A DNA stretch of 64,000 nucleotides from Clostridia bacterium (GTDB lineage Bacteria; Bacillota; DSM-521; Neomoorellales; Neomoorellaceae). This document shows positions 10,633-25,726 of this stretch, in pieces. A program made the translations under genes and the position numbers. The stretch is from assembly GCA_030445865.1 (NCBI GenBank), contig JASUSV010000004.1:10061-74060 (forward strand). The letters run 5' to 3'. Each line of letters opens with the position of its first letter. The stretch's first letter is position 1. The notes under the pieces were generated by a model that saw nothing but the letters and a program-made list of their open reading frames with translations, had not been told where the DNA came from and ran no database searches.

Positions 10633-12570
10633 CTGGACAGAATTGTCATATCCCGACTGATAAAGCTGACCGGTGATGTAACAAACACAGGCAATAATTC
10701 CGCCTTTCTCCAAAGGGTTCAAGTTCTGGAGGGAAAGGATGAGCTTGCCCTTCTGTCCGTTGAAATCAACAAAATGTTGGACAGGCTGGAGGAGTACCGG
10801 CAAGAGATACATGAGAGGGAAAAGAAATATAGAGAGGTGGTGGAAAACGCCGCTGAAGCCATTGTTGTGGTCCAGGACGGTGTGGTCAAATTCGTCAACC
10901 GGGCGGCAGCGAAACATACGGGATACGCAGAAGAGGAGCTTATTTCAAACCCTCTTGCCAACTTCATCCACCCGGAAGACAGGAATGCGGTAACGGAACA
11001 TTGCAGGGAGTTGCTTGAAGGCAAGCGTGTCTTATACGCATTTCCGTTCAGGATAATAGCCAGAAACGGGAGTGTCAGGTGGGCGGAAACAAACTCCGTG
11101 GTGTGCGAATGGGAGGGGCGGCCCGCCACTTTAAATTTTCTCACCGATATTACCGCTCGCAAGTTGCTGGAAGAAGAGCTGCAGAGGTTGATGGCAGAAA
11201 AATCGCTAATTCTTGACAGCCTTGCGGAGCTGGTTGTATTTCTGGACCGCGATATGCACATTATCTGGGCCAACCGTGCGGCTGGCGAATCCGTTGGCGC
11301 CAGTCCCGAAGCCCTCTGGGGAGGGAAATGCCACGAAATATGGCACGGGAGGAGTTCTCCCTGCGAGGGCTGTCCGGTCGTCCGGGCCATGGAGACCGGC
11401 CAGGTATGCGCGGGTGAGATGGCCTCCCCGGACGGCCGCTTCTGGCATATAACGGCCTCTCCCGTCAGGGATAAAAACGGAAACGTTGTGGGCGCGGTTG
11501 AAGCAACTCTGGATATCACCGAGCGCAGGCGATACGAGGAACAGCTGAAATACTTAAGCCTGCACGACCTGCTGACGGGCCTTTACAACCGGGCCTTTTT
11601 CCAGGAGGAGCTCAGGCGCTTGTCCTCCAGCCGGGAATACCCGATAACAATACTGGTGGCGGACCTGGACGGCCTGAAACTGGTTAACGACACCCTGGGC
11701 CATGCCAAAGGCGATGAGATGTTAAAGGCCTGCGCGGATGTTTTGAGAACCTCCCTCCGCCGCTCTGATATCCTTGCCCGCATAGGAGGCGACGAATTTG
11801 CCGCCCTTTTGCCCAGAACAGGTGAAAAAACTGGGGAAGATATTGGGTGCCGGATACGCTCCCGTATCTATGGCTACAACAAAGAACACCCCGAGCTGCC
11901 CCTGCACCTGTCCATAGGCTTTGCCACGTGCCAAAGCGAGGATGAATCTCTCGAAGATACCTTTAAGCAGGCCGACGACCTCATGTACCGCCACAAGCTT
12001 GTGCACAGGGCCAGCGCGCGGAACCAGATTGTCGGCGCCCTGCTGGCAGCCTTGAAAGAAAAAGATTACATCACTGCGGGGCATGCTCAGCGGCTGGAGG
12101 AATTGTGCTTAAAAATGGGGGAAAAGATAGGTCTTTCTCCCCGGCAGATGGCCGACCTGGCCCTGCTGGCGCAGGTCCATGACCTGGGCAAAGTTGCCGT
12201 ACCGGACAGCATCTTGTTCAAGAAAGGCCCGCTTACAGAGGAAGAATGGGAGGTCATGCGCCGGCACCCCGAAAAGGGCTACCGCATCGCCCTTTCCTCA
12301 CCCGACCTTGCCGGGGTGGCAGATTTAATTCTCAAGCATCATGAAAGATGGGACGGCAGCGGCTATCCCCTGGGGCTAAAGGGCGAAGAGATACCTGTAG
12401 AATGCCGCATCCTGTCCATTGTCGATGCCTTTGACGCTATGACCAGCGAGCGGCCCTACAGGAAGCCCAAAAGTAAAGAAGGGGCGATCATAGAGCTTAA
12501 AAGGTGTGCGGGAAGCCAGTTTGACCCGCAACTGGTTGATATCTTTGTTTCCATGTTTTCGGCGGCATGA
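10633..12570 (+). CDS. HAMP-PAS-PAS-GGDEF-HD-GYP c-di-GMP turnover protein (C-terminal part of the interrupted gene; first Met at 10774)
   Basis: It is in the same frame as 9754..10632, with no other stop between them. The HAMP-like segment LDRIVISRLIKLTGDV..DELALLSVEINKMLDRLEE is followed by two PAS domains. The GGDEF motif is intact (RIGGDEFAALLP), as is the HD-GYP domain (VHDLGK..HHERWDGSGYP). Confidence 0.8.
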   Translation: MDRIVISRLIKLTGDVTNTGNNSAFLQRVQVLEGKDELALLSVEINKMLDRLEEYRQEIHEREKKYREVVENAAEAIVVVQDGVVKFVNRAAAKHTGYAEEELISNPLANFIHPEDRNAVTEHCRELLEGKRVLYAFPFRIIARNGSVRWAETNSVVCEWEGRPATLNFLTDITARKLLEEELQRLMAEKSLILDSLAELVVFLDRDMHIIWANRAAGESVGASPEALWGGKCHEIWHGRSSPCEGCPVVRAMETGQVCAGEMASPDGRFWHITASPVRDKNGNVVGAVEATLDITERRRYEEQLKYLSLHDLLTGLYNRAFFQEELRRLSSSREYPITILVADLDGLKLVNDTLGHAKGDEMLKACADVLRTSLRRSDILARIGGDEFAALLPRTGEKTGEDIGCRIRSRIYGYNKEHPELPLHLSIGFATCQSEDESLEDTFKQADDLMYRHKLVHRASARNQIVGALLAALKEKDYITAGHAQRLEELCLKMGEKIGLSPRQMADLALLAQVHDLGKVAVPDSILFKKGPLTEEEWEVMRRHPEKGYRIALSSPDLAGVADLILKHHERWDGSGYPLGLKGEEIPVECRILSIVDAFDAMTSERPYRKPKSKEGAIIELKRCAGSQFDPQLVDIFVSMFSAA

Positions 12571-12796
12571 GTGATACTGCACAGCGTGCTACCCAGAGTT
12601 AACCATAATTGACTGCGACCGACTGTTGCGTTACCATAGGACCGTGGAACTTTTATCCATCGGTGAAGCGGCAAAGAAATTAGGTGCGCATCCGAACCGC
12701 TCCGGGCGTGGGGGAAGCAGGGGAACATCGCCGGAATATATTATATATTGCCGGGGTTACTACGGCGTGGTTGTAATGGTAGAATAAGCTGGAGAG

Positions 12797-14536
12797 GTGT
12801 TAGAAGTGGCAGCGCAACGGCGGCGGCTGGGCGATCTCCTTGTCGAGACCGGCCTGCTAACTCCGTCCCAGCTCGAGCGGGCGCTTCAGGAGCAGAAAAG
12901 GACCGGCGAGAGGCTGGGTAAAATTTTAGTTCGCCTGGGATTTTTAAGCGAGAGAGACATCCTGGAGGCCCTGGAATTTCAGCTGGGAATTCCCAAGGTG
13001 AACCTGGAAGACTACCGCCTGGACCCGGAAGTAGTGGGCTTAATACCGGAAGAGCTGGCCCGGCGGCATATGGCCGTTCCTGTAAAGAAAGACGGTAATC
13101 GGCTTTTAGTGGCTATGGCCGATCCCCTTAACCTTCTGGCCATCGATGACCTGCGCCTGGCCACCCGCATGGAAATCCTGCCGGCCATAGCCACCGAAAA
13201 GGAGATCCAGGCAGCCCTCTCCATTTACCAGCAGAACCGGGCCAAGCAGGCAAAATGGGCCCAACTGGCAGATCTGGCCGAAACGGCCGCCGGCCTCGCC
13301 GCCGAAGCCGCGGCCGGGGCGCCTTCGCGGGAGATATTTAATTTGGACGGGGCAGGCGCCGCCAGCTCAGACGGCGCGCCTGTAGTGCGGCTGGTAAATA
13401 ACCTTATCGCCCAGGCCGTGCAGGTTAAGGCCAGCGATATCCACTTGGAGCCCCAGGGCGAAAGGATCCGCGTTCGCTTCCGGGTTGATGGACTGCTGCG
13501 CGAGGTGGCCCAGCTTCCCTTAAGCGCTTTGAGCAGCCTCGTCTCCCGCATCAAGATCATGGGCGGTATGGATATTGCCGAAAAAAGGCTGCCTCAAGAC
13601 GGCCGCTTCCAGGTGACGCTGGAAGGCCGTAACATCGACCTGCGCGTTTCTACCCTGCCGGCCGTTTACGGCGAGAAGGTGGTTTTACGCATCCTCGATA
13701 AGGAGGCCATGATGATCCCTTTGGAAGGCCTAGGCTTTTTGCCTTCCCTCCGCGAGCGCTATGAGGCCTTAATCCGGAGCACTTACGGCATGATCCTTAT
13801 TACCGGGCCTACCGGTAGCGGCAAGACGACGACCCTTTACGCCACCCTCAAGGCTTTAAACACCCCGGAAAAGAATATCGTTACTATCGAGGACCCGGTA
13901 GAATACCTGCTGGAAGGCATAAATCAGGTGCGGGTTAACCCTAAAGCAGGGTTGGATTTCGCTTCCGGCCTGCGCTCCATTTTGCGCCAGGACCCGGACA
14001 TTATCATGGTCGGTGAAATCCGCGACCGGGAGACGGCCGACATTGCCGTCCGCGCCGCCACTACCGGCCATCTCGTTTTAAGTACCCTGCATACCAATGA
14101 TGCCGCCGGTGCGGTGACCAGGCTGGTTGATATGGGAGTGGAGCCCTTTCTAGTAAATTCATCTTTAATTGGGGTCGTGGCCCAGCGGCTGGTGCGGCTG
14201 ATTTGCCCCCACTGTAAGGAAGAGTATCTGCCTGCCCCCGGGACGCCGGAATACGCTTATTTGCAGGGCGAGGGCGAAATTACCTCCCTGTATCGCGGTC
14301 GCGGCTGCCCGGCCTGCAACTACACGGGTTATCGGGGGCGGACGGCCATCCAGGAGGTGCTGGTTATGACCGAGAGACTTCGCTCCCTCGTCTCTGCCAA
14401 AGAGCCTTCAGTAATCATTCGTAAGGCGGCTATAGAAGAGGGCATGATTCCCCTGCACCGCGACGGGTTATATAAAGCCAGGCAGGGTTTGACCACGGTG
14501 AGCGAAGTAATGCGCGTTGCCCTGGGCGGTTTTTAA
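12797..14536 (+). CDS. pilB: Type IV pilus assembly ATPase PilB/GspE with N-terminal MshEN domain
   Basis: Walker A GPTGSGKTT, a tetracysteine site (CPHC..CPAC) and two N-terminal RLGxxLVxxG(L/F)Lxxxx(L/I)xxxLxxQ motifs are present. Confidence 0.92.
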   Translation: MLEVAAQRRRLGDLLVETGLLTPSQLERALQEQKRTGERLGKILVRLGFLSERDILEALEFQLGIPKVNLEDYRLDPEVVGLIPEELARRHMAVPVKKDGNRLLVAMADPLNLLAIDDLRLATRMEILPAIATEKEIQAALSIYQQNRAKQAKWAQLADLAETAAGLAAEAAAGAPSREIFNLDGAGAASSDGAPVVRLVNNLIAQAVQVKASDIHLEPQGERIRVRFRVDGLLREVAQLPLSALSSLVSRIKIMGGMDIAEKRLPQDGRFQVTLEGRNIDLRVSTLPAVYGEKVVLRILDKEAMMIPLEGLGFLPSLRERYEALIRSTYGMILITGPTGSGKTTTLYATLKALNTPEKNIVTIEDPVEYLLEGINQVRVNPKAGLDFASGLRSILRQDPDIIMVGEIRDRETADIAVRAATTGHLVLSTLHTNDAAGAVTRLVDMGVEPFLVNSSLIGVVAQRLVRLICPHCKEEYLPAPGTPEYAYLQGEGEITSLYRGRGCPACNYTGYRGRTAIQEVLVMTERLRSLVSAKEPSVIIRKAAIEEGMIPLHRDGLYKARQGLTTVSEVMRVALGGF

Positions 14537-14551
14537 AAAGGTGGAACGGCA

Positions 14552-15559
14552 ATGGACATACGAGATATACTTCAAGCGGCAGCAGCAAAAGGGGCTTCTG
14601 ACGTTCACCTTACTGTGGGTTTGCCGCCGGTTTTTCGTTACCTGGGAGAGTTGCTGCCCCAGGAGAACTGGCCGCCTCTGCAGACGGCAGTAACCGAAGA
14701 ACTGGCCAGGCAGTTGCTCGGGGAAAGATGGCCGGAATTTGCCACGCAGGGCGAACTGGATTTCGCTTACTCTCTTTCCGGAATTGGGCGTTTCCGGGTA
14801 AATGTTTTCCGCCAGCGGGGGAGCGTTGCTGCGGCCATCCGCCTGATCCCTGCGAGGGTACCCAGTTTAGAGGAACTGGGCCTGCCCCCGGTGGTAGGGG
14901 AGCTGGCCGACCAGCCCCACGGCCTGGTCCTGGTTACCGGGCCTACCGGTAGCGGTAAGACCACTACGCTGGCGGCCATGATCGATCGGATTAATCATCA
15001 GCGCAGCTGTCATATAATTACTCTGGAGGACCCCATAGAGTACCTGCACCAGCACAAAAAGAGCATGGTCAACCAGCGGGAGATAGGGAGCGATTCTCCT
15101 TCCTTTGCGAGCGCTTTGAGGGCTGCCCTGCGCCAGGACCCTGACGTTATTCTGGTGGGCGAGATGCGGGACCTGGAGACGGTGGCCACGGCCATTACGG
15201 CTGCCGAAACCGGGCACCTCGTGTTGACTACCCTGCATACCAGCAGCGCCGTCCAGAGCGTTGACCGCATTATTGACGTCTTCCCTCCGCACCAGCAGGG
15301 CCAGATAAGGATCCAGTTAGCTGATACTCTGGCCGGAGTTATTACTCAACAATTATTACCCCGCGCCGATGGTAAAGGCCGGGTGGCGGCGGTTGAAGTT
15401 CTCATTGCTACTCCAGCTGTACGCAATCTTATAAGGGAAGGTAAAACCCACCAGATTGTTTCTGCCATGCAGACGGGCGGCCGTTTCGGAATGCAGACCA
15501 TGGAGATGTCGCTAAAGCAATTGTCTGCTAGGGGAATAATTGACCTGGATCATGGTTAA
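14552..15559 (+). CDS. pilT: Twitching-motility (retraction) ATPase PilT
   Basis: The length is 335 aa. GPTGSGKTTT, the Asp box and the segment TLHTSSA are present, as in the PilT family. Confidence 0.9.
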   Translation: MDIRDILQAAAAKGASDVHLTVGLPPVFRYLGELLPQENWPPLQTAVTEELARQLLGERWPEFATQGELDFAYSLSGIGRFRVNVFRQRGSVAAAIRLIPARVPSLEELGLPPVVGELADQPHGLVLVTGPTGSGKTTTLAAMIDRINHQRSCHIITLEDPIEYLHQHKKSMVNQREIGSDSPSFASALRAALRQDPDVILVGEMRDLETVATAITAAETGHLVLTTLHTSSAVQSVDRIIDVFPPHQQGQIRIQLADTLAGVITQQLLPRADGKGRVAAVEVLIATPAVRNLIREGKTHQIVSAMQTGGRFGMQTMEMSLKQLSARGIIDLDHG

Positions 15560-15745
15560 ACAAGAAGGAATTTGGCTAATTTTGGCGAATTAAATGGTAT
15601 CCCTGTTAAGGGCAAACCTGGCGAAAGCCGGGGGCGCAAAGCTACGGGCCTAAGGGTGAAAATGCCTATGGCCGCCGGGCTGCCGGGGGAACTGGTTCTT
15701 CCGCAGCGGCTCGGCGCGTCTTTTTTCTGGCGGTGTAGTGTAGAT

Positions 15746-16957
15746 ATGGCGATTTTCAGTTATCGTGCCCGCGATGCTTCAGGTCGAGCGGTGGCTGGTT
15801 CTGTGGAAGCGGAAAATGAGGCGGTCGTTGTTCGACAACTAAGGGAGAAGGGCTTATTTGTCATTGATGTTCGCCCTGCGCGGACGCGGTTTGCCGTAAA
15901 TCTAAAACGCGCTCTTTTACGTCGCCTTGGAAGGCGAGATCTCTCGGTTTTTTGCCGGCAGCTAGCCACCATGTTGGGGGCAGGATTGCCTATTGTCTCG
16001 GCTCTCCAAATCCTGGCGAGGCAGGCTGAGAATAAAGTATTGCGCCAGAGCATTGAAGAGATCTTAAGGGACCTCGAAGGGGGTGGTGCTTTTCACGAAG
16101 CGTTGGGGCGGTTGCAGGGCCTTTTTCCCCCAATTATGGTACACGGAGTGGAGGCGGGTGAGGTCGGAGGGTCTCTCGATGAAACCCTCGAAGAGTTAGC
16201 TGCCCACCTGGAGCGCGAGCATGAGATTGAGGAGAAGGTTAAGTCGGCTCTCACCTATCCTGCCATAGTTGTGTCGGTAGCTATAGCAGTCCTGATTTTC
16301 TTACTGACGTTCGTGCTCCCGGCTTTTCAAAATATGTTGAACGATTTGGGTGTGCCCTTGCCGCTTCCCACTGTGGTAGTGCTGAGTATCAGTAGAGCTC
16401 TCCGGCAGGGTTGGTTTATCCTGACTTTGGTTATAGGTGTACTGGCGTACGCGGTCTACCGTATCCTCAAGATAGAAACCGTGAGATACCGCCTGGACAG
16501 CATTTTGCTGAAGCTGCCGGTATTTGGGCCGCTTCACCATAAGGCTGTTTTGTCCCGCTTTAGTCGTACTCTGGGCACGCTGCTGCGGAGCGGGGTACCG
16601 ATTCTCCAGGCCATGGAAGTAGTGCGGCGTACCGCTGGAAACCGGGTGGTAGCGGAAGCGGTAGCGCGGGCGCAGGAGAGTATTCGCGATGGAAGGGGTA
16701 TCGCCGGCCCGCTGGAAGAGAGCGGTCTTTTCCCCCCCATGGTTGTGGGGATGATCGCTGTGGGCGAAGAAACCGGTGCCCTGGATTCTCTTCTAGGGAA
16801 AATCAGCGCTTTCTACGACCGGGAAATCGGGGAGACTGTCGGTCGCCTGTCCTCGCTGATAGAACCATTATTGATCGTCATGTTGGGTGCGGCAGTGGGA
16901 TTTATTGTGATTTCTATATTGCTGCCGTATTTCCAGATGCTGGGGAACATCAGATAA
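15746..16957 (+). CDS. pilC: Type IV pilus platform protein PilC (GspF family)
   Basis: There are two GspF repeats and three TM segments. The family-typical N-terminus MAIFSYRARDASGR begins at the ATG at 15746. The ORF is open from 15572, but that extension is not family-like. Confidence 0.88.
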   Translation: MAIFSYRARDASGRAVAGSVEAENEAVVVRQLREKGLFVIDVRPARTRFAVNLKRALLRRLGRRDLSVFCRQLATMLGAGLPIVSALQILARQAENKVLRQSIEEILRDLEGGGAFHEALGRLQGLFPPIMVHGVEAGEVGGSLDETLEELAAHLEREHEIEEKVKSALTYPAIVVSVAIAVLIFLLTFVLPAFQNMLNDLGVPLPLPTVVVLSISRALRQGWFILTLVIGVLAYAVYRILKIETVRYRLDSILLKLPVFGPLHHKAVLSRFSRTLGTLLRSGVPILQAMEVVRRTAGNRVVAEAVARAQESIRDGRGIAGPLEESGLFPPMVVGMIAVGEETGALDSLLGKISAFYDREIGETVGRLSSLIEPLLIVMLGAAVGFIVISILLPYFQMLGNIR

Positions 16958-17062: not shown

Positions 17063-17554
17063 ATGCGGAAAAAAGTGAGAGATGAGCGCGGTTTTACCCT
17101 GGTGGAACTGCTGGTGGTCATCGCCATCATCGGCATCCTGGCCGCCATAATCCTACCCAACGCCTTCAAGGCCATTGAGAAGGGCAAGGTGGCGGCAGCG
17201 GAAGCGGACTACAAGGCGATTAAGGCCGCGGCGCTGAATTACTATACTGATACTGGTGTATGGCCTACAGACGGTGCAGGTAACACGGGATTTGTGACTG
17301 CACCTACGCCATCGGTATCTGGCTGGAACGGCCCTTATCTTGAGCGCTGGCCGAGCAAGAACCCGTGGGGTGGCAAATACTATTACATCAAAGATGGCGA
17401 CTGGGATTTCGATAATGATGATGATTCAGGTTACAGGTTCTTACAGTTGGACAATGTTCCGTCCAGCGCCATAAGCAGGTTAGAGAGTGACCTTGGGAGC
17501 GACGTTGTAAAAACAGATAATAACAAGATTAACATCCTCATCTCTAAAGACTAA
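17063..17554 (+). CDS. pilA: Type IV pilin / GspG-like major pilin, paralog 1
   Basis: The prepilin signal RG|[19 protein letters not shown] and the GspG-like motif [14 protein letters not shown] are present. A strong RBS, AGGAGG, precedes the start. Confidence 0.88.
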
Positions 17555-17698
17555 GGTTACGATGTGCTAAAAGAAACTCGGAATTGTGGTTGGGTCTACG
17601 ATAAGTGTTTAGAAACTGTTTTGTGATACGAATAAAGCATTATATGGCTGAAAACAGTCGGTGATCGACAACAAGGGGCAGCTGGGCCTGCTTTACAC

Positions 17699-17735
17699 GT
17701 GTCCTGCCGGCGCCCTCCGGCGCCGGCAGGACATG
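17699..17735 (+). other. GC-rich perfect stem-loop downstream of pilin 1
   Basis: GTCCTGCCGGCGCC (17701-17714) and GGCGCCGGCAGGAC (17719-17732) form a 14-bp perfect stem with a 4-nt loop, extendable by flanking pairs. There is no U-tract. Confidence 0.6.
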
Positions 17736-17821
17736 GCCCCAGCCGGAACCGGTGCGCCTGTTCCTGGGAATGAAGTAGTAAACCGGAATCTCTTTTTCCC
17801 GGGAGAGGTTGTGAGCCATTG

Positions 17822-18353
17822 ATGTCAGGTTTCCCCAACCTGCACCGCGACCGCCGCGGCTTCACCCTGGTAGAGCTTCTGGTGGTCATCCGCCATCATC
17901 GGCATTCTCGCCGCCATAGTGCTTCCGAATGCATTTCAGTCCACCGAGAAGGCCAAAATCGCCCAGGCCTATGAGACCGCCAAGGCGATAAAGTCGGCTG
18001 CGGTGCAGTACTATGCGGATACGGGGCGCTGGCCCGCGATGACTGACAATTACAGTGACATCAACGGGTTCTTGAAAGATGACGGAACGCCCGGATGGAA
18101 CGGGCCGTACCTGGAGAAATGGAAATTTGGCCCCTGGAACGGCCGGCTACGCTGGGACACGAGCATAAACGTAACCGGGGGACCTGCCAAGGATGCGATT
18201 ATTGTTTTCGACGATGACCATACACGGGATTCCAATGATAACCAGGGTAAGATTCCGCGTCGTTCGATGGAGGTAATCGACCGCACCCTTGATGATGGGA
18301 ATCTGGCTACAGGTTTTGTTCAGGGCGACGGATTAGGACACCATGCTGCCTAA
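17822..18353 (+). pseudogene. Type IV pilin paralog 2, disrupted by a +1 frameshift in the N-terminal helix
   Basis: The ATG at 17822 gives [23 protein letters not shown]. The sequence then reads GTCATCCGCCATCATC where the paralogs have GTCATCGCCATCATC, an extra C at about 17890. The rest of the pilin (LPNAFQSTEKAKIAQ..WNGPYLEKW) continues in the ORF 17919..18353. Confidence 0.8.
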
Positions 18354-18491
18354 GGAGAACTGGTTATTGTACTGGTGGCGGATGTGCAGTAGTGATCAAT
18401 GCAAGGCGTTCTTGCAAATCATGCAGGCAGTTTTTGGCATAAACTATTTCATTTGGCGTACGGGAAGCGCTTTTCAAAAGCGGGTGACAAT

Positions 18492-19070
18492 ATGCTCGGA
18501 TTTCTAAACCTGCGCCGCGACCGCCGTGGCTTCACCCTGGTGGAGCTTCTGGTGGTCATCGCCATCATCGGTATCCTGGCCGCGATAGTTCTTCCCAGCG
18601 CCTTCAAAGCGGTGGAAAAGGCGAAGATATCGCGGGTGGTCGCCGACGTGCGGGCCATAAAGGCGGCCGGTCACGCCTATTACGCCGATACCGGTGACTG
18701 GCCTAAATCAGGGCAGGATGCTTACGATCCCGGCCCTGGCGACGACTACGGCTTCCGGTACTTCATGGAGGCCGACGGCAGCGGCAGCTGGAACGGGCCG
18801 TACCTGGAGAAGCCGCCGGGTACCACGCCCTGGGGCGGTTACTACCGCTACTGGAAGAGCAGAATAACCGGTACCGTCTATGACGCCGCGGGCAATCCGA
18901 TTACAGTTAACAACACTAAATGCGCCGTGGTCACCATCGGCGGCTTTCCTGACGAAGGCATCCGCAATGCCGTGGACCAGCGCATCCGGGAGAGTGTCGG
19001 TTACTCCTATGTTGGCGAGGAAAGGGGCACTTACTACATTTCGGTGATCATCTGGATGGAAGGGTTGTAA
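18492..19070 (+). CDS. Type IV pilin paralog 3
   Basis: MLGFLNLRRDRRG|[19 protein letters not shown] and WNGPYLEKPP..PWGG are present. The ATG at 18492 is parallel to the paralog 2 start; the ORF is open from 18399. Confidence 0.85.
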   Translation: MLGFLNLRRDRRGFTLVELLVVIAIIGILAAIVLPSAFKAVEKAKISRVVADVRAIKAAGHAYYADTGDWPKSGQDAYDPGPGDDYGFRYFMEADGSGSWNGPYLEKPPGTTPWGGYYRYWKSRITGTVYDAAGNPITVNNTKCAVVTIGGFPDEGIRNAVDQRIRESVGYSYVGEERGTYYISVIIWMEGL

Positions 19071-19146
19071 GTGCCGGTGCGCTTGTCGTTTGGGTATCCG
19101 GCGCCTAGCCTGTGGTTGGGCTCGCCATAAAGCCGGAGGGATTTGA

Positions 19147-19770
19147 TTGATTAAGCGGCGTTCTAAAAATGAAAAAGGCTTCACCCTGGTGGAACTTCTG
19201 GTGGTCATCGCTATCATTGGGATCCTACCGGCCATTATTGTCCCTAGTGCGTTCAGGGCTATAGAGAAGGGTAAGGTTTCCAGGGCGGTTGCGGATCTTC
19301 GGGCGATCGGTAAAGCGGCAATGGCTTATTATGCCGACGTGGGCGATTTTCCGGGGTCTAAAGGGCACCCTCCCGGTGAGCCTTTGCAGAACGGGAGCGA
19401 TCCCGGATTCGTTCGTAAGCCCGATAGCTCTTGGCAAACGGATAACCCCAATGTTGGTTATGGAGGAAACCTGGATGCCTGGGATGGACCGTATCTTGAA
19501 AAATGGCCGTCACGGCATCCCTGGGGGGACGCCTACAGCTGGAATTACTGGCGGGATTACCCTGTACCTGGAATAGGTACGACGGTAAGTAAGGCGGGAA
19601 TTGTAACGCTGGAGGACTACGGTCGCATCCCCCGTGAATCGCTGGAGGCCATTGATCGGATCCAGGATGATGGCGATCTATCCAAGGGCTATGTATTTTA
19701 CCAGCAGAGTGGCGGTGGCGTTGGTTACAATGGTAACGGCTATCTCCAAGTGGTAGTGGCTACGCAATAA
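19147..19770 (+). CDS. Type IV pilin paralog 4
   Basis: KG|[19 protein letters not shown] and [13 protein letters not shown] are present. Confidence 0.85.
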
Positions 19771-19777
19771 GAAGGAG

Positions 19778-19819
19778 CTATTGATAGTCGTCGCCATCAT
19801 CGGAGTGCTGGAGGCGTAA
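19778..19819 (+). pseudogene. Orphan fragment of a pilin N-terminal helix
   Basis: It translates as LLIVVAIIGVLEA*. The nucleotides CTATTGATAGTCGTCGCCATCATCGGAGTGCTGG resemble the conserved pilin 5' cassette. It sits immediately after the pilin 4 stop. Confidence 0.5.
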
Positions 19820-19843: not shown

Positions 19844-20632
19844 TTGGATAGAAGGAATGTAAGCAAAAGGAAAAATATGTTTTGGATGGAAGGTTTTTTC
19901 TTCTTATTGGGTCTTTTTATCGGTAGTTTCCTCAATGTAGTGATTTACCGCCTACCGCGAGGAGAAACGGTAGTTTCGGGGCGATCCCGTTGCCCTGCCT
20001 GCGGGCGGGTGCTGGCCTGGTATGATCTCTTCCCGGTGCTTAGCTACCTCGTCCTGCGGGGTAGGTGCCGTTACTGCGGGGCGCAAATTTCCCCGCGGTA
20101 TCTGATAGTGGAGTTGTTGACCGGCGCGGTGTTTGCCGCGCTGTTTTACCGTTTGGGGCCGACACCGGCGCTGGCCAAGTACCTTTTTCTCGGCGCCGTC
20201 TTGATAGCAGCCGCCTTTATCGACCTGGAGCACTACCTGATCCCGGATCGCCTTGTGCTTGCCGGGCTGGCGGGCGCCGTAATCCTGGGTTTCGCGGCCC
20301 GAGACCTGGAAATCTGGTCGGCTCTGGCGGGATTCGCGGCGGGAGCAGGATTTTTGTCTGTTGTTGCCGTAATTAGCAAGGGTGGGATGGGTGGTGGTGA
20401 CGTGAAGCTGGCAGCGGTAGCGGGGCTTTTTCTCGGCTGGCCGCTCGCGGCTTTAGCCTTGTTTCTGGCCGTAGTTGCCGGTGGTCTGGCGGCGGCTGTT
20501 TTCCTGTTTCTCGGGATAAAGGGGCGGAAAGATCCCGTTCCGTTTGCCCCCTTCATCGCGGCGGGCACGCTTGCCGCGATCCTTTGGGGCGCTCATATCA
20601 TTGACTGGTATCGGCAAGTTTTTCTGCTCTAA
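19844..20632 (+). CDS. pilD: Prepilin peptidase (A24 family) PilD
   Basis: The N-terminal Cys box CPACG..CRYCG is present in a polytopic membrane protein, together with the catalytic-region motif GMGGGDVKL. The start may instead be the ATG at 19877. Confidence 0.88.
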   Translation: MDRRNVSKRKNMFWMEGFFFLLGLFIGSFLNVVIYRLPRGETVVSGRSRCPACGRVLAWYDLFPVLSYLVLRGRCRYCGAQISPRYLIVELLTGAVFAALFYRLGPTPALAKYLFLGAVLIAAAFIDLEHYLIPDRLVLAGLAGAVILGFAARDLEIWSALAGFAAGAGFLSVVAVISKGGMGGGDVKLAAVAGLFLGWPLAALALFLAVVAGGLAAAVFLFLGIKGRKDPVPFAPFIAAGTLAAILWGAHIIDWYRQVFLL

Positions 20633-20665: not shown

Positions 20666-21154
20666 TTGAGAAGTGGTCTTAAAGGCACGGAAGCCCGCAC
20701 GTTGCTCGAGGTTGTCATAGTGATGCTGATAGTTTCTACGGTGCTGGCCATCGCCGTGCCCGAACTTGGGAAGCCCCTCGCCGCCGCCCGCCTGGATGCC
20801 CTGGCCGGGCAGGTGGCGGCGGATATCCGAACGGTACAGCAAAGGGCCATTAGTGAGGAAAGCGCCGCCTATTATATTAATTTTTACCCGCATGGCAACC
20901 GGTATGAGGTCAGAAAGACGGGCTACCCGGTGTACGTGATACTGGATAAGGTAACCCTGCCCAGCACCGCCCAGCTCGTGGAGACCACTTTCAATGAGGA
21001 CAGGCTGGCGTTTTCGGCGGGTGGTAGGCCCGTCCAGGGTGGCACCATAACGCTGCGGGACAGGCGATCGGGGCGTTCCCGGTATGTGATCGTTGCTCCC
21101 GTCACGGGGAGGGTGCGGGTGAGTGATAGTCCTCCGGAAAGCTGGGAAAAATAG
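20666..21154 (+). CDS. GspH/FimT-like minor pilin
   Basis: An N-terminal hydrophobic helix (TLLEVVIVMLIVSTVLAIAVP) and a GspH-like C-terminus (GTITLRDRRSGRSRYVIVAPVTGRVRV) are present. Confidence 0.65.
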   Translation: MRSGLKGTEARTLLEVVIVMLIVSTVLAIAVPELGKPLAAARLDALAGQVAADIRTVQQRAISEESAAYYINFYPHGNRYEVRKTGYPVYVILDKVTLPSTAQLVETTFNEDRLAFSAGGRPVQGGTITLRDRRSGRSRYVIVAPVTGRVRVSDSPPESWEK

Positions 21155-21581
21155 GCATCGGTGGAATAGCCTGGATAATAGTGGTTTTACCTTGATAGAA
21201 GTATTAATCGCCGTCCTGGTTCTCGTGGCTGCCATTGTTCCCCTGATGACGGCATTTATTCACGGTACGCGCTGGACGGCCGAATCGCGCGACCTGATAA
21301 CGGCTGTAAATCTTGCCCAGGGGAAGCTGGAGGAGCTGAAGAATAGGCCCTACGTGAACCTCGAAGCGGGAGAACCGACCGACCCCAATCAACCACCACG
21401 CTCCTTTACCGGCTATCCCCGGTATGCTTATGGGGTTGCCGTTTCCCTGATTGCCGTACCCGAAGGTGCGAACGCGAAGAACGTGAAAACGGTAACGGTG
21501 GCCGTCTACGACACCGCCACCGGCCGGGAAGTCGTCTCCCTGACGATGGACAAGGGCGACTGGAAAGGTGACTGGAAGTGA
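21123..21581 (+). CDS. PilV-like minor pilin (prepilin-type N-terminal cleavage/methylation domain)
   Basis: The motif SG|FTLIEVLIAVLVLVAAIVPL is present. The start codon is uncertain. Confidence 0.7.
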   Translation: MIVLRKAGKNRHRWNSLDNSGFTLIEVLIAVLVLVAAIVPLMTAFIHGTRWTAESRDLITAVNLAQGKLEELKNRPYVNLEAGEPTDPNQPPRSFTGYPRYAYGVAVSLIAVPEGANAKNVKTVTVAVYDTATGREVVSLTMDKGDWKGDWK

Positions 21582-22099
21582 GGCGCGGGTGCGCGGGGGA
21601 ACGCGGTTTTACCCTGGTCGAGGTCGTGGTGGCCGTTTTGATCTTCAGCCTGTTGGTGGGGGCGGCACTGGCCCTGTACCATCAGGCCGTGTTGTCCTGG
21701 CGCCGGGAAGAAGCGAGGGTTGACGTCCAGGAGAACTTGCGCATCGGCCTGGATAGGATGAGCAGAGAACTTAAGACCGCCTTAAGACTGGTCGAGGCTC
21801 AGGAGGGCAGGCTGGGTTTTATTATTGAGGCAAAAGACGACGCGGGTAATACCGTACAGAAGACCGTATATTATTACCGTGATTCCGCCCGCGGGCAGTT
21901 AATGCGCAAGGTCGACGGCGGGCAGAACCCGCTGGCCAGCTACGTGACGGTTTTAAGGCTGGTGTACTACGATGCGGGTGACAATCCCACGCAGAACTTG
22001 GACAGCATCCGCCGGGTCGAGATCACCCTCACCGGGCGGAAAGGCAACGGACCCGAAGTCACAATGACTACTTCTGTAAGGATTAGGGCGCTCGGCTGA
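21578..22099 (+). CDS. PilW-like minor pilin (prepilin-type N-terminal domain)
   Basis: The motif ERG|FTLVEVVVAVLIFSLLVGAAL is present. Confidence 0.7.
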   Translation: MRRGCAGERGFTLVEVVVAVLIFSLLVGAALALYHQAVLSWRREEARVDVQENLRIGLDRMSRELKTALRLVEAQEGRLGFIIEAKDDAGNTVQKTVYYYRDSARGQLMRKVDGGQNPLASYVTVLRLVYYDAGDNPTQNLDSIRRVEITLTGRKGNGPEVTMTTSVRIRALG

Positions 22100-22107
22100 G
22101 GGGGTGC

Positions 22108-23349
22108 TTGCCTTTGCATCGGAAGAGCGCTGGGCAAGGGCGATCCAGGGGCGCGCAACGGGGACAGGCCCTCATCCTGGTTATGCTCGTGCTCCTTGTC
22201 GTCGCCGTGCTCGGCACCGCGGCCGTCACCCTGGCCACAAGCCACCGACAGACGGCCGCCCGGCAGCGGAACCTCGTGCAGGCGTACTACGCGGCGGACG
22301 CCGGCGTGGAGAGGGTACTGGTGATGATCAGGCAAAACCCGGGATGGTTTATGCCGGAGCCTTTGAAGAACGTTCCTTACGCCGGCGGCAACATTGAGAG
22401 GGTGACCGTCGAAAAGCTGCAGGGAGGGCCCGGAACGGGGCTGAAGATAACCTCCGAGGGCACCTTCATAAAGGCGCGAAAGACGCTGGAGGTCAAAGTC
22501 CGGGTTTACACCCCCGGCGACCTGCTTAAAGGGGTCAGCATTTTTCCGCCGGCGCCGGATTACCTGCAAGAAATTACCGGGAACTTTACCCTGAAGGGCG
22601 AGTCGGGGAAGCCTAGGCCGGTATTTCTGATAGACGGGAGCCTGGATGTCCGTGGCGCGACCCAAAAGCACATCGATGCCGACGTGTATGCTTCGGGCAG
22701 TATTGAAGGGCTGACAGGCGACAACGTCCACCCCAGGTACCTGGCCGTCCCGCCTTTTCCAGAGCTGAAAGAGGAATGGTACCGGACTCAGGCTAAGTAT
22801 CTTTATTCGGATGATATCACTTTTCCACTAGAGTCGCAGAAGCGTGACCACGGAAAGGAACGCAAGCGAGATGTGCCAAGTAGTGACCACGGAAAGGGAG
22901 AGGGGCAGCAGGGGAAGAGCGAAGACGTTGCCGAGTACAGTGGCGTGTACTTTGTGGACGGAAACGTTCGAATTTCAGGCGCGTACAGCGGGCAGGCGGT
23001 CATCGTGGCGGGAGGTAACATAGAGGTCACCGGTGACCTTCGGGCTGAGGACCGGGGTAACGACCTCTTGGTTCTTATCTCGCTGAATCCCGGCGGCGGC
23101 GTAGACATAAAGAATTATTCGGTGGACGCCTTAATTATAGCCAGCGGTATTTTCTCGGCCCAGGGAAACGCCCAACTTTTCGGGGGAATAATCGCCAGTC
23201 AGCTGGATCTCAACGGCAGCGTAACGATTACCTGTGATCCCGCCCTTACTGAGAGCAATCAGGACTTGTTAGGGCTGGCTTTTGGCGACAGCAACAACCG
23301 GCCGGTCATAAGGATTGAAAGCTGGAGTGAGCAGTATCCGGTCTTTTAG
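22108..23349 (+). CDS. PilX-like pilus assembly protein
   Basis: The PilX_N-like N-terminus GQALILVMLVLLVVAVLGTAAVTLA..QAYYAADAGVE is followed by a large variable C-terminal domain. Confidence 0.65.
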   Translation: MPLHRKSAGQGRSRGAQRGQALILVMLVLLVVAVLGTAAVTLATSHRQTAARQRNLVQAYYAADAGVERVLVMIRQNPGWFMPEPLKNVPYAGGNIERVTVEKLQGGPGTGLKITSEGTFIKARKTLEVKVRVYTPGDLLKGVSIFPPAPDYLQEITGNFTLKGESGKPRPVFLIDGSLDVRGATQKHIDADVYASGSIEGLTGDNVHPRYLAVPPFPELKEEWYRTQAKYLYSDDITFPLESQKRDHGKERKRDVPSSDHGKGEGQQGKSEDVAEYSGVYFVDGNVRISGAYSGQAVIVAGGNIEVTGDLRAEDRGNDLLVLISLNPGGGVDIKNYSVDALIIASGIFSAQGNAQLFGGIIASQLDLNGSVTITCDPALTESNQDLLGLAFGDSNNRPVIRIESWSEQYPVF

Positions 23350-23527: not shown

Positions 23528-24367
23528 ATGTTCTGGTCTCGAATCCTGGGCGTAGACCTGGGAACCGCGAACATCAAAGCAGTTTTGATTGCCGGCCGCC
23601 GGGTCCACACGGCGAAAGCCCCTGCACCGCCTGCCGGACCGGGCGACCGCGCCGGCCTAACCGCCGCTTTGTCGGCAGCCGTGGCTCAATTAAAAGGCGG
23701 GGCAGGCCGGGCGGTGACGGCGCTGTCCGGGGACCAGGTGGTAGTGCGCTTTATAAAACTGCCGCTAATGACCGGGAAGGAATTGCGCTCCGGCTTGCAG
23801 TATGAGGCCGAGCGCTATCTGCCCGTGAACCTGCAAGAATATGTTTTGGACTGGGTCGTCCTGCGGAAACTGCCTGACCGGCAAATGCTGGTCATGCTGG
23901 CGGCTGCCCCCAGGGAGCTGGCCTATAGTTACTACGAGTTATTCCAGGCCGCGGGCCTGACTCTTCTATCCCTGGACGTAGCGCCCCTGGCCCTGCTGCG
24001 TTCCCTGGCCCCGGGCAGGGAGGAGAACGCCATCCTCTTGGATGTCGGAGCCGGTTCCACCCAGATAGTGGTCGCCCCCGGCGGTTGCCCGGAATTCAGC
24101 CGGCTGGTAACCCTGGGTCTAAATAGCAGGTCGGGTCCGGACGACCTGGCTTTATTAGTTCAGGAAGTACGCCGTTCGCTGGAATTTTACCGGAGCCAGA
24201 CCGGGAATAACGTAGACTTCCGCCGCCTTATTTTGGCCGGCGGCGGCGCCTACCTGCCGGGAATTAAAGAATATCTTCAGGAAGAACTGGGATTCGAAGT
24301 TGATGTCGGCCCTTCCAGGGTGCCGCCTGAATTTGCCCTGGCCTACGGCCTGGCTTTAAGGAGATAG
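23528..24367 (+). CDS. pilM: Type IV pilus assembly protein PilM (actin-like ATPase fold)
   Basis: ILGVDLGTANIKAV..DVGAGSTQIV is present, and the gene sits directly upstream of pilN and pilO. Confidence 0.8.
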   Translation: MFWSRILGVDLGTANIKAVLIAGRRVHTAKAPAPPAGPGDRAGLTAALSAAVAQLKGGAGRAVTALSGDQVVVRFIKLPLMTGKELRSGLQYEAERYLPVNLQEYVLDWVVLRKLPDRQMLVMLAAAPRELAYSYYELFQAAGLTLLSLDVAPLALLRSLAPGREENAILLDVGAGSTQIVVAPGGCPEFSRLVTLGLNSRSGPDDLALLVQEVRRSLEFYRSQTGNNVDFRRLILAGGGAYLPGIKEYLQEELGFEVDVGPSRVPPEFALAYGLALRR

Positions 24368-24371
24368 GCGC

Positions 24372-24890
24372 ATGCATGCCGTTAACCTGTTGCCGCCTGA
24401 ACTTAGACCCCGCCGCTTTGTAGTTTTGGGCCCGAAGCAGGTGGCATTGGCTTTCCTGCTGGCCCTGAGCCTCGCTCTTGCCTATTTCCCGCTGGCCAAT
24501 TCTTTCCTGGCCCGGCAGTTGCAACAAATCGAAAGAGAACTGGCCTTGCTGGGTCCCCAGGTGCAGAAGGTTGAAAACCTTGCCGCCTCGTTAGAGCGCG
24601 AGGCGGCGGAAGATAAAGTTTTAACTCAAAGAGCGGCCGGCCGCCGGGCTTTAAGCCCCTTTTTAGAAAGCCTGGATTCCAGTTTACCCCCGGGAATCTG
24701 GCTGGTAGAGCTACAGGTGTCCGCTCAGGGTGAAATAAATTTAAAAGGAAAGGCTCTCGGGCTTGAACCGGTGGGAGAACTGTTGAACAATTTACAGGTA
24801 AGAGCCGGGCTTAAAGAAGTCGTCCTGCCGGAAATTAAGGCGGATCCCGAAGGTAGCTACGTGAGCTTTGTTGTGAAAGCTAGACTATGA
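24372..24890 (+). CDS. pilN: PilN-like fimbrial assembly protein
   Basis: The N-terminus INLLP-like (AVNLLPPELRPRR), a single TM helix and a coiled coil are present. Confidence 0.7.
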   Translation: MHAVNLLPPELRPRRFVVLGPKQVALAFLLALSLALAYFPLANSFLARQLQQIERELALLGPQVQKVENLAASLEREAAEDKVLTQRAAGRRALSPFLESLDSSLPPGIWLVELQVSAQGEINLKGKALGLEPVGELLNNLQVRAGLKEVVLPEIKADPEGSYVSFVVKARL

Positions 24891-25726
24891 ATTTCTTCCG
24901 TCTTAATCTAAACCGCCGGGAAAAGATCTTGCTGGGGGTTTTGGGTTGCCTGTTAATTTTCTTTTTAACCTACAGCTTTATCGGGCGCCAGCAGCTCCCG
25001 CGTTACCGTCAGCTCAAGGCCGAGATCGCCGCCCGCGAGGTCCGGCTAAAAAAAGCCCAGCAGGTAGTGGCAAGCGCCCAGGCCCTTGGCGAGCGCCAAA
25101 ATAAGTGGCAGGCCGAGAAGGAAGTTTTGCGCCGGCGCCTGGCTTTAGACGATACGGCGCTGGAAGGCTTCCTTAAAATTTTGCAGCCGGAAGAAGAAGG
25201 GTTGCAGGTTAGTGAGTTAAGGCCGGGCCAAGAGCGCCGGGAAGGTAACCTCAAGATACAATCCTGGCAGCTCAAGCTGGTAGGATTCTACCCCTCTTTA
25301 AAATTGTACCTTAAACGCCTGGAGACCCGGCTGCCTCTCCTGCAGGTTACCAGCATAAAAGTTAATGCCCGGCCCGGAGCCCCTTTTTCCTCGGTAGAGG
25401 CCGATCTTACCCTGGAGTTACCGGTTTTACCCGGTGAAAAAGGGCTGCCAGCCGGACCGGTTATCGCCTTGCCCAAGAATGTAGATGTTTTTGCCCCGCC
25501 TCCAAAAGGCGGACCAGCGGCAGAAGGGCGCCAGGCGCCCGGTACAACAGAGGGAGAGAAAAGCCGGGCTGCTGCCCCTGCCCTGTCCTATACTCCCGCC
25601 AACACCCCACCTGCTTCTCCCGGCAAGGACCGGCCTGCCGTTCCGGGAAGTCTGGGCGGGCCGGGAAACGGGAACGAGCCGGGCGGCAGGGCGGAGAAGC
25701 CCAGCTATACCTTTCCGCGCCGGTAA
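24887..25726 (+). CDS. pilO: PilO-like pilus assembly protein with Pro/Gly-rich C-terminal tail
   Basis: It has a single N-terminal TM helix and a coiled coil, its start is coupled to the pilN stop, and it occupies the PilO position. Confidence 0.6.
   Translation: MNFFRLNLNRREKILLGVLGCLLIFFLTYSFIGRQQLPRYRQLKAEIAAREVRLKKAQQVVASAQALGERQNKWQAEKEVLRRRLALDDTALEGFLKILQPEEEGLQVSELRPGQERREGNLKIQSWQLKLVGFYPSLKLYLKRLETRLPLLQVTSIKVNARPGAPFSSVEADLTLELPVLPGEKGLPAGPVIALPKNVDVFAPPPKGGPAAEGRQAPGTTEGEKSRAAAPALSYTPANTPPASPGKDRPAVPGSLGGPGNGNEPGGRAEKPSYTFPRR

Follow-up and report, generated by a model that had tools for sequence, protein, structure and literature searches.

A tandem array of pilin genes in a type IV pilus operon

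We analyzed a stretch of DNA of 64,000 nucleotides (the window) from a genome of 2.08 Mb in 90 contigs that its relatives place in the Moorella family. Four pilin genes in the window, paralogs 1 to 4, lie one behind the other in the same direction and occupy the interval between pilC and pilD. The gene order pilB-pilT-pilC-pilins-pilD-minor pilins-pilMNO is, by Pfam domains, that of a complete Gram-positive, type IVa-like pilus operon, and the prepilin peptidase, the assembly ATPase, and the platform protein are encoded beside the pilins. The four genes share a short 5′ cassette, and they carry bodies of four different types, A, B, C, and D for paralogs 1 to 4, respectively. We consider it likely, from sequence comparison across related genomes, that this is a mosaic array of one major and three accessory pilin types, shaped by birth and death of genes together with modular horizontal exchange at the cassette. 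The features of the locus are as follows.

12797..14536, + strand: pilB, assembly ATPase (Pfam T2SSE E=7e-145, MshEN N-terminal domain E=8e-24)
14552..15559, + strand: pilT, retraction ATPase (Pfam T2SSE E=2.5e-50; 335 amino acids)
15572..16957, + strand: pilC, platform protein (Pfam T2SSF E=3e-65)
17063..17554, + strand: paralog 1, type-A pilin (Pfam N_methyl, T2SSG, PilW_C; cassette 17090-17149)
17698..17735, + strand: GC hairpin 3′ of paralog 1 (perfect 17-bp stem)
17822..18392, + strand: paralog 2, putative type-B pilin pseudogene (cassette 17858-17918; premature TAA 18351-18353; ancestral stop TAG 18390-18392)
18492..19070, + strand: paralog 3, type-C pilin (Pfam N_methyl, T2SSG; cassette 18528-18587)
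19147..19770, + strand: paralog 4, putative chimeric pilin with type-D body (cassette 19177-19236)
19774..19819, + strand: orphan cassette fragment (ELLIVVAIIGVLEA, then stop; nhmmer cassette match)
19877..20632, + strand: pilD, prepilin peptidase / N-methyltransferase (Pfam A24_N_bact E=7e-36, Peptidase_A24 E=1e-19)
20666..23349, + strand: minor pilin set (Pfam), comprising the next three entries
20666-21154, + strand: GspH-like minor pilin (Pfam)
21123-21581 and 21578-22099, + strand: two N_methyl minor pilins (Pfam)
22108-23349, + strand: PilX-like gene (Pfam)
23528..25726, + strand: pilM, pilN, and pilO-like gene (Pfam PilM_2, PilN, T2SSM)

An initial annotation had described four consecutive GspG-like pilin genes, and this description holds: the open reading frames (ORFs) run from 17063 to 17554, from 17822 through a frame break to 18353, from 18492 to 19070, and from 19147 to 19770, with Pfam matches. 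The N_methyl domain is found in paralogs 1, 3, and 4 (E=1e-9 to 8e-11), and T2SSG matches these three as well as the tail ORF of paralog 2 (17919-18353). The NCBIfam model IV_pilin_GFxxxE is exceeded at its cut-off, in keeping with a class III signal peptide and N-methylation motif; in paralog 2 the motif can be read in the DNA, and the frame breaks inside it. The top NCBIfam model is the GspG equivalog TIGR01710, with 81.2, 64.6, 55.2, and 20.3 bits. None of these reach its cut-off of 88.85, while the Pfam T2SSG domain scores exceed the gathering score; thus, the proteins are GspG-like rather than GspG. PDB entry 5wda was matched at E=4e-12. The core WNGPYLE(K/R)W..PWG is present in all four paralogs, as had been noted, and the C-terminal halves, previously called divergent, are unalignable. 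The resemblance to GspG of the type II secretion system (T2SS; PulG/EpsG) lies in the best-scoring family (T2SSG, TIGR01710), the structural matches, and the WxGPY...PWG core. The locus departs from a T2SS in encoding PilT, PilM/N/O, and a PilX-like protein, in lacking the GspI/J/K set, and in having pilin heads 20-70 residues longer than those of GspG. No secretin was found among the ORFs scanned with Pfam.

A structure was modeled for one of the paralogs, paralog 4. The AlphaFold2 model (mean predicted local distance difference test score 79.8) contains a helix at residues 14-65 and strands at 129-140, 145-156, 183-187, and 198-206, a predicted pilin fold with a long N-terminal helix and a four-stranded antiparallel sheet. 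A Foldseek search with this model returned Clostridioides difficile PilA1 (6t8s) first (probability 1.00, template modeling score 0.63 on the target), followed by EpsG and PulG.

Each of the four paralogs has its own ribosome-binding site (RBS), leader, and full cassette. The sharing of a leader between paralogs 2 and 3 is evident in the sequences NLHRDRRG and NLRRDRRG. In paralog 1 the RBS is AGGAGG, 9 nucleotides (nt) 5′ of the ATG. The hairpin behind this gene starts ~145 nt past the stop codon and has no U-tract; the 121 nt around it fold at -62.4 kcal/mol (z=-3.2), and the region has homologs in the G009, G013, MAG124, SRR-bin, and Desulfofundulus thermobenzoicus loci, which makes it a conserved element behind the first pilin. 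It is probably a partial terminator or a 3′ stabilizer. Three features make paralog 1 the probable major subunit: its first place in the array, its consensus RBS, and the strong hairpin behind it. Scans for promoter and intrinsic terminator consensus sequences inside the array gave matches no commoner than in shuffled sequence.

The shared cassette, its junctions, and the damaged copies

The near-identical 5′ block reported earlier amounts to ~60 nt that start at the Gly codon of the cleavage site and read GGCTTCACCCTGGTGGA(A/G)CT(T/G)CTGGTGGTCATCGCCATCATCGG... in the four genes. The first 20 residues of the mature cassette are identical among the paralogs except for A17P in paralog 4. Beyond the protein sequence, codon choice is shared: in the first 20 codons, 76 of the 117 codon pairs that specify the same residue use the identical codon, against 38.8 expected from codon usage in the window. 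In the remainder of the pilin genes identical codons number 43 of 130 (53 expected) and 62 of 151 (57 expected). Conservation at synonymous sites is therefore about twice the prediction from codon usage in the cassette, and at or below, or near, expectation in the rest of the genes. Paralogous cassettes are much more alike than paralogous bodies. Between genomes the relation is reversed: in orthologous pairs, synonymous codon identity is 0.69 for cassettes against 0.785 for bodies, and the cassette has the lower value in 26 of the 35 pairs. Cassette and bodies thus have separate histories.

Across arrays, the body type of a pilin gene does not predict its leader or the DNA upstream of it, and paralog 4 is the instance of this in the window. 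Its upstream 130 nt are 83% identical to the region 5′ of type-E genes (LDZS) and to that of the SRR-bin stub, and 71% identical to that of D. thermobenzoicus, versus 49-50%, the random level, for upstream regions of type-D genes. The next 150 nt of the body are 87-88% identical to type D and 57-61% identical to type E. Compared with the type-D gene of Moorella G016 (G016_3), paralog 4 is 88% identical from the first base of the cassette (19177) to just past its stop codon (19768-19770), and on both sides of this homology the flanks are unrelated. Paralog 4 thus appears to join the upstream region and leader of a type-E slot to a type-D body, with the crossover inside the cassette. The same paralog reads GILPAII, with Pro at mature residue 17 (19225-19227) inside the putative crossover zone, in a helix that is otherwise invariant; the other cassettes examined all have A (or G) there.

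Comparable joins occur in other arrays. Gene 4 of Neomoorella carbonis ACPs combines type-D upstream DNA (90%) with a type-G body (80-81%), and gene 4 of L119, a JGI metagenome contig, combines type-C upstream DNA (77-88%) with a type-E body (94-96%), which is what a cassette crossover between C and E would leave once the C body was deleted. Homology between the type-B gene of LDZS and the window begins only at 17858, where the cassette starts. A separate observation concerns L116 (Ga0256833_1063940), in which positions 585-677 and 1182-1274 share 93 identical nt of leader and cassette between adjacent genes with B-like and F-like bodies; no other pair among the loci examined points as clearly to a recent local conversion or duplication.

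Paralog 2 carries two lesions. The extra C that had been reported in its cassette is present in the sequence: paralog 2 reads GTCATCCGCC and the other three paralogs GTCATCGCC, the insertion making CC at 17890-17891. The second lesion, absent from the initial annotation, is a TAA stop codon in frame at 18351-18353; the 24-nt patch around it has ~11 substitutions. Three intact type-B orthologs run 12-14 codons further and end ...GDGEGY(A/L)AA(K/A)GELVIVLVADVQ(Q); the end of paralog 2 reads ...GDGLGHHAA-TAA-GELVIVLVADVQ-TAG, with the frame past the TAA open as far as the TAG at 18390-18392. The segment lost to the TAA is the last β-strand, whose counterpart in the paralog 4 model is a core strand predicted with confidence. 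Over the first 157 codons, changes specific to paralog 2 in the window number 10 synonymous and 3 nonsynonymous, compared with 9/2 and 18/4 in intact orthologs, to which paralog 2 is 81-94% identical in amino acid (aa) sequence. Because this substitution pattern is like that of the intact genes, inactivation would be recent, and paralog 2 appears to be a recently inactivated pseudogene.

We weighed whether paralog 2 is instead functional, with the extra C as a sequencing or assembly error, so that the array would have four working pilins. Single-base insertions are common among consensus errors, and the ratio of 10 synonymous to 3 nonsynonymous changes resembles that of intact orthologs; yet the TAA is an independent second lesion, it removes a strand (GELVIVLVADVQ) that is conserved in the three closest orthologs, and a patch of ~11 substitutions is unlike a typical base-calling error. 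We judge a working paralog 2 to be improbable. A programmed ribosomal frameshift or a slipped-strand switch at the extra C was also considered and rejected, since the site, ATCCGCC, is not a repeat tract and the TAA lies downstream of it. Of the suggestion that paralog 2 is a silent or decaying copy, decay is what the two lesions favor. A silent cassette of the Neisseria type does not fit a gene that has its own leader and RBS and intact orthologs elsewhere.

Behind paralog 4, at the end of the array, stands the pilin-helix fragment that had been noticed as an orphan. We searched the whole 2.08-Mb genome with a hidden Markov model (HMM) of the cassette using nhmmer. Positions 19774-19814 match model positions 15-55 at a genome-wide E=5.3e-5 (next best E=0.07), and the fragment is in register with the cassettes, with 77% identity over 43 nt. 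Its likeliest origin is a fifth pilin gene of which the 5′ end and the body have both been lost. Its reading as the trace of a rearrangement is strengthened by this significant match and by comparable stubs at the array ends in G016 and the SRR bin. The G016 stub, 24 codons located 3′ of a type-D gene, begins as a cassette and runs straight into the 3′ end of a type-E gene and the DNA downstream of it, which demonstrates that a type-E gene has lost its body there. Apart from the four genes and the orphan, the HMM matched nothing in the genome, and therefore there is no hidden store of silent copies.

Pilin types and a discordant module in comparison with related genomes

Arrays of 1-6 cassette-bearing genes are found in Moorella/Neomoorella, Desulfofundulus thermosubterraneus, D. 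thermobenzoicus, Desulfovirgula, and 'Candidatus Desulfopertinax', and likewise in a number of uncultured bins and metagenome contigs. When paralogs 1 and 3 were looked up as exact sequences, nothing from the same species came back, and a metagenome scan together with a search of 5.8 billion proteins returned nothing closer than ~92-94% aa identity. We built a tree from the pilin bodies, leaving out the cassette. The starred clades of this tree are 0.7-2 substitutions per site apart and constitute deep, well-supported types. Each of the four paralogs belongs to a starred clade; that of paralog 3 (type C) comprises six genomes, which represent several genera. Of the 21 arrays examined, 20 begin with a type-A gene. 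The terminal branches of this type are long; types B to G hardly differ from one genus to another. Against full-length type-C genes of Desulfofundulus, LDZS, the SRR bin, and Moorella G009, paralog 3 is 81-89% identical (aa). The four paralogs thus appear to represent old, distinct pilin families that are found in many thermophilic Firmicutes. In addition, close relatives of paralog 1 at 45-60% aa identity, often at several loci per genome, occur in metagenome-assembled genomes (MAGs) of Omnitrophota, Planctomycetia, and Atribacterota (loci L054-L112), and the family of this pilin thus extends far beyond the Firmicutes.

Damaged genes recur in these arrays. In the complete genome of N. carbonis ACPs (L026), the type-C pilin on the minus strand (~4161-3550) has at least two frameshifts and an in-frame stop, and the type-B gene of L118, a JGI contig, has a different 1-nt deletion. 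The first pilin of the UBA12532 MAG (L033, position 1271) is cut after 36 residues and is intact in the near-identical contig LDZS01002684.1 (L114, position 3369). This truncation could be either strain variation or an assembly error, and it calls for caution with single lesions in MAGs.

The pilins and their neighbors differ in which relatives they most resemble. TldD is 77-78% identical (aa) to its homologs in Moorella and 62-66% identical to those in Desulfofundulus, UBA12532/LDZS, the SRR bin, and Desulfopertinax. For PilB the corresponding values are 73% in Moorella and 59-61% in the Desulfofundulus, UBA12532, and SRR-bin genomes, and for PilM they are 46% in Moorella and 34-36% in the others; pilC is ~60-62% identical in nucleotide sequence to every relative examined. 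Because PilB and PilM are closest to Moorella, they look vertically inherited. The pilins and the genes that follow them show other affinities. Paralog 2 is 93-94% identical to its counterparts in LDZS and the SRR bin and 35-47% identical to those in Moorella; paralog 3 is 84-89% identical in the non-Moorella group and 81% in Moorella G009; PilD is 88% identical in LDZS and 67-68% in Moorella; and the GspH-like protein is 79% identical in LDZS (over partial coverage) and 30-39% in Moorella. The other minor pilins and the PilX-like protein are 45-67% identical in Desulfopertinax and ~30-38% in Moorella, where the PilX-like match (37-38%) covers less than one quarter of the length and one N_methyl minor pilin has a counterpart in G004 only (34%). 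The pilins, pilD, and the minor pilins thus form a tract, from ~17.0 to 23.35 kb, that is much closer to uncultured 'Peptococcaceae'/Desulfopertinax genomes than to Moorella, while the flanking pilB, pilC, pilM, and tldD follow Moorella, so that tract and flanks disagree in phylogeny. A compositional test for transfer is uninformative here, GC being 0.50-0.61 over 12-27 kb with no clear step. Finally, bodies of the same type from Neomoorella and Desulfofundulus, genera that NCBI places in different orders, have 77-90% identical synonymous codons. On this comparative evidence, the module of pilins, pilD, and minor pilins looks like one that was replaced by horizontal transfer.

Explanations of the array and comparison with known systems

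For the mosaic array we propose the following mechanism. Because the first 20 mature residues are the same, a single PilD and a single assembly machine would be able to process and polymerize any type, in mixed or alternative filaments, each type presenting a different globular head. Paralog 1 would supply the main subunit, and the hairpin behind it would limit read-through to the downstream copies, whose products, as accessory types, would bring additional or alternative surface properties. The homology anchor for recombination would be the ~60 nt that encode the invariant helix. Comparison between genomes indicates that crossovers in the cassette have linked a slot's upstream region and leader to a body of a different type, as apparently in paralog 4; that they have deleted bodies and left stubs such as the orphan at 19774-19819; and that they have let heads, with pilD and the minor pilins, pass among thermophiles that are only distantly related. 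Superfluous copies decay, as paralog 2 seems to have done. As for what drives the diversity, antigenic variation, which had been raised as one possibility, is unlikely in an environmental thermophile, and functional or phage-related diversity is a more plausible candidate.

Several points weigh against this explanation. The first concerns the earlier proposal that the 5′ blocks are substrates of recombination or gene conversion. Recombination is supported by the junctions seen in comparisons between genomes, while homogenization within genomes is weak: cassettes of one genome differ at 8.3 positions per 57 nt and cassettes of different genomes at 9.8 (permutation p=0.02), so that similarity within genomes is barely above that between genomes, and the signal comes mostly from two loci. 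The four cassettes of the window differ among themselves by a mean of 7.3 of 57 positions versus 8.6 to those of other genomes, a difference so small that we make no claim for ongoing conversion inside this genome and rejected it as the main mechanism. Second, the Wilcoxon p=6.5e-5 for the lower conservation of orthologous cassettes relative to bodies is indicative and overstates the support, as the pairs are nonindependent. Third, mRNA selection, or codon choice in a membrane-targeted segment, could explain part of the synonymous conservation. Fourth, in a MAFFT alignment of the 3′ junction of the orphan with G016 and LDZS, convincing alignment is confined to GGCGTAAG and the final ~20 nt ahead of pilD, making the match to the region 5′ of pilD short and ambiguous. 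Finally, the junctions of the window itself rest on one assembly that is probably metagenomic; a short-read mis-join at a 60-nt repeat is possible, and the assembly alone does not prove the paralog 4 junction.

A broader form of the mosaic array would have the thermophilic anaerobic Firmicutes of different orders share a mobile pool of head modules, with the 60-nt cassette as a universal docking site. In this form, heads from the Moorella family, Desulfofundulus, Desulfovirgula, and uncultured 'Peptococcaceae' may enter any resident array by homologous recombination; the DNA might be taken up by the pilus itself, and the synonymous conservation of the cassette may be maintained by, or for, exchange. 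We regard such a pool as a tentative idea that is somewhat doubtful as it stands.

Alternatively, the array could be static, made up of old paralogs inherited vertically, with the cassette kept solely by selection on the helix and its mRNA and with the chimeras and stubs as assembly artifacts of bins. The N-terminal helix is indeed the most conserved part of type IV pilins in all bacteria, the cassette codons are mostly the commonest of this genome, and several of the compared loci are MAGs or metagenome contigs, with gene 1 of UBA12532 truncated where a near-identical contig has it intact. However, chimeras, stubs, and pseudogenes with multiple lesions are also found in finished isolate genomes, those of N. 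carbonis ACPs and the single-contig Moorella G016. Moreover, the bodies keep their 77-90% synonymous identity across orders in which PilB and TldD are only ~60-65% identical in aa sequence, and therefore vertical descent cannot account for them. Pure purifying selection also predicts the opposite of what we observed for orthologous genes, in which cassettes diverge more than bodies. We consider a static array unlikely.

Least probable of all, in our view, is a programmed system like pilE/pilS of Neisseria, in which the expressed pilin would be rewritten from silent copies by conversion at the 5′ block with paralog 2 as a donor. In Neisseria, pilS copies have no promoter, RBS, or conserved N-terminal coding part, and donate mini-cassettes by RecA-dependent gene conversion at high frequency. 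The locus resembles that system in having several pilin-related sequences per genome, recombination among them, and nonexpressed copies; its genes have in common a cassette with conserved synonymous sites, one of them has lost its frame, and two genes of one metagenome contig have 93 identical nt of leader and cassette. It differs in that the copies are complete genes with RBS, leader, and full cassette, the block they share is N-terminal, and the genome contains no further copies of the cassette. Further points against programmed variation are that the pil operon ORFs scanned with Pfam include neither a recombinase nor an invertase, that the bodies have no internal conserved block that could guide mini-cassette conversion, that cassettes are only weakly homogenized within genomes, that paralog 2 has intact orthologs elsewhere and carries a nonsense lesion as well, and that the extra C lies outside any slippable homopolymer tract. 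We conclude that the array does not behave as a programmed high-frequency variation system and that the evidence for exchange is on an evolutionary scale, largely between species.

The mosaic array can also be compared with systems in which pilin loci are exchanged horizontally. The pilin island of Pseudomonas aeruginosa, with its allele groups of pilA and linked accessory and minor-pilin alleles, and the pilA loci of Vibrio cholerae and Acinetobacter are horizontally exchanged; conserved 5′ pilin sequence and flanking genes give the homology for replacement, and there is usually one pilA per strain. As in those islands, a major pilin and a minor set form an exchanged, discordant module between conserved machinery genes. 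Variation in the pilA islands is between strains; here, several types lie side by side, the crossovers can be mapped to a 60-nt cassette, and the hosts are monoderm thermophilic anaerobes. Because mosaic, horizontally exchanged pilin loci are already established in Gram-negatives, the locus extends known biology and overturns nothing. PilA1 to PilA6 of Haloferax volcanii also have an identical hydrophobic N-terminal domain and divergent heads served by one peptidase and assembly system, and their genes are dispersed. The invariant N-terminal hydrophobic segment and divergent heads are thus shared with our locus, which differs from the archaeal genes in being a tandem array; we know of no evidence for modular exchange at the conserved pilin block of H. 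volcanii.

Among Gram-positive bacteria, the pil locus of Streptococcus sanguinis has two to three adjacent major-pilin genes with identical N-termini, divergent C-termini, and a copy number that varies with the strain, and both pilins are processed by one PilD and occur in comparable amounts in purified pili (PMC4832360). The present locus is likewise a clustered Gram-positive type IVa locus with adjacent pilins of shared N-terminus, as in pilE1/pilE2, and variable copy number. The S. sanguinis copies are recent duplicates, near-identical over the first 110 residues, whereas the bodies here are old and unalignable and ~20 residues (60 nt) are shared. Sharing of heads across orders, chimeras of slot and body, and stubs, all seen here, are not reported for S. 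sanguinis in that study (PMC4832360). A 2011 survey lists Moorella pilins without discussing arrays or recombination (PMC3244431).

Hardly any work has addressed the type IV pili of Gram-positive thermophiles, among them the acetogen Moorella and the sulfate reducer Desulfofundulus. The locus and its relatives, in which 1-6 major-like pilins are kept, heads appear to be traded across orders, and the joins fall in invariant helix-coding DNA, provide a testable model of how surface filaments may diversify with the assembly machine unchanged and of how a short homology block may suffice for modular exchange. We see in them a well-resolved case of known pilin-locus evolution, in a group for which it had not previously been described. 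For annotation, the lesson is that pilin arrays contain real pseudogenes and stubs and that pilin trees depart from species trees.

One further observation concerns the 5′ end of the operon (region 10774-14536), where a PAS-GGDEF-HD-GYP protein is encoded directly 5′ of the MshEN-bearing PilB. This adjacency suggests control of pilus assembly by cyclic dimeric GMP (c-di-GMP).

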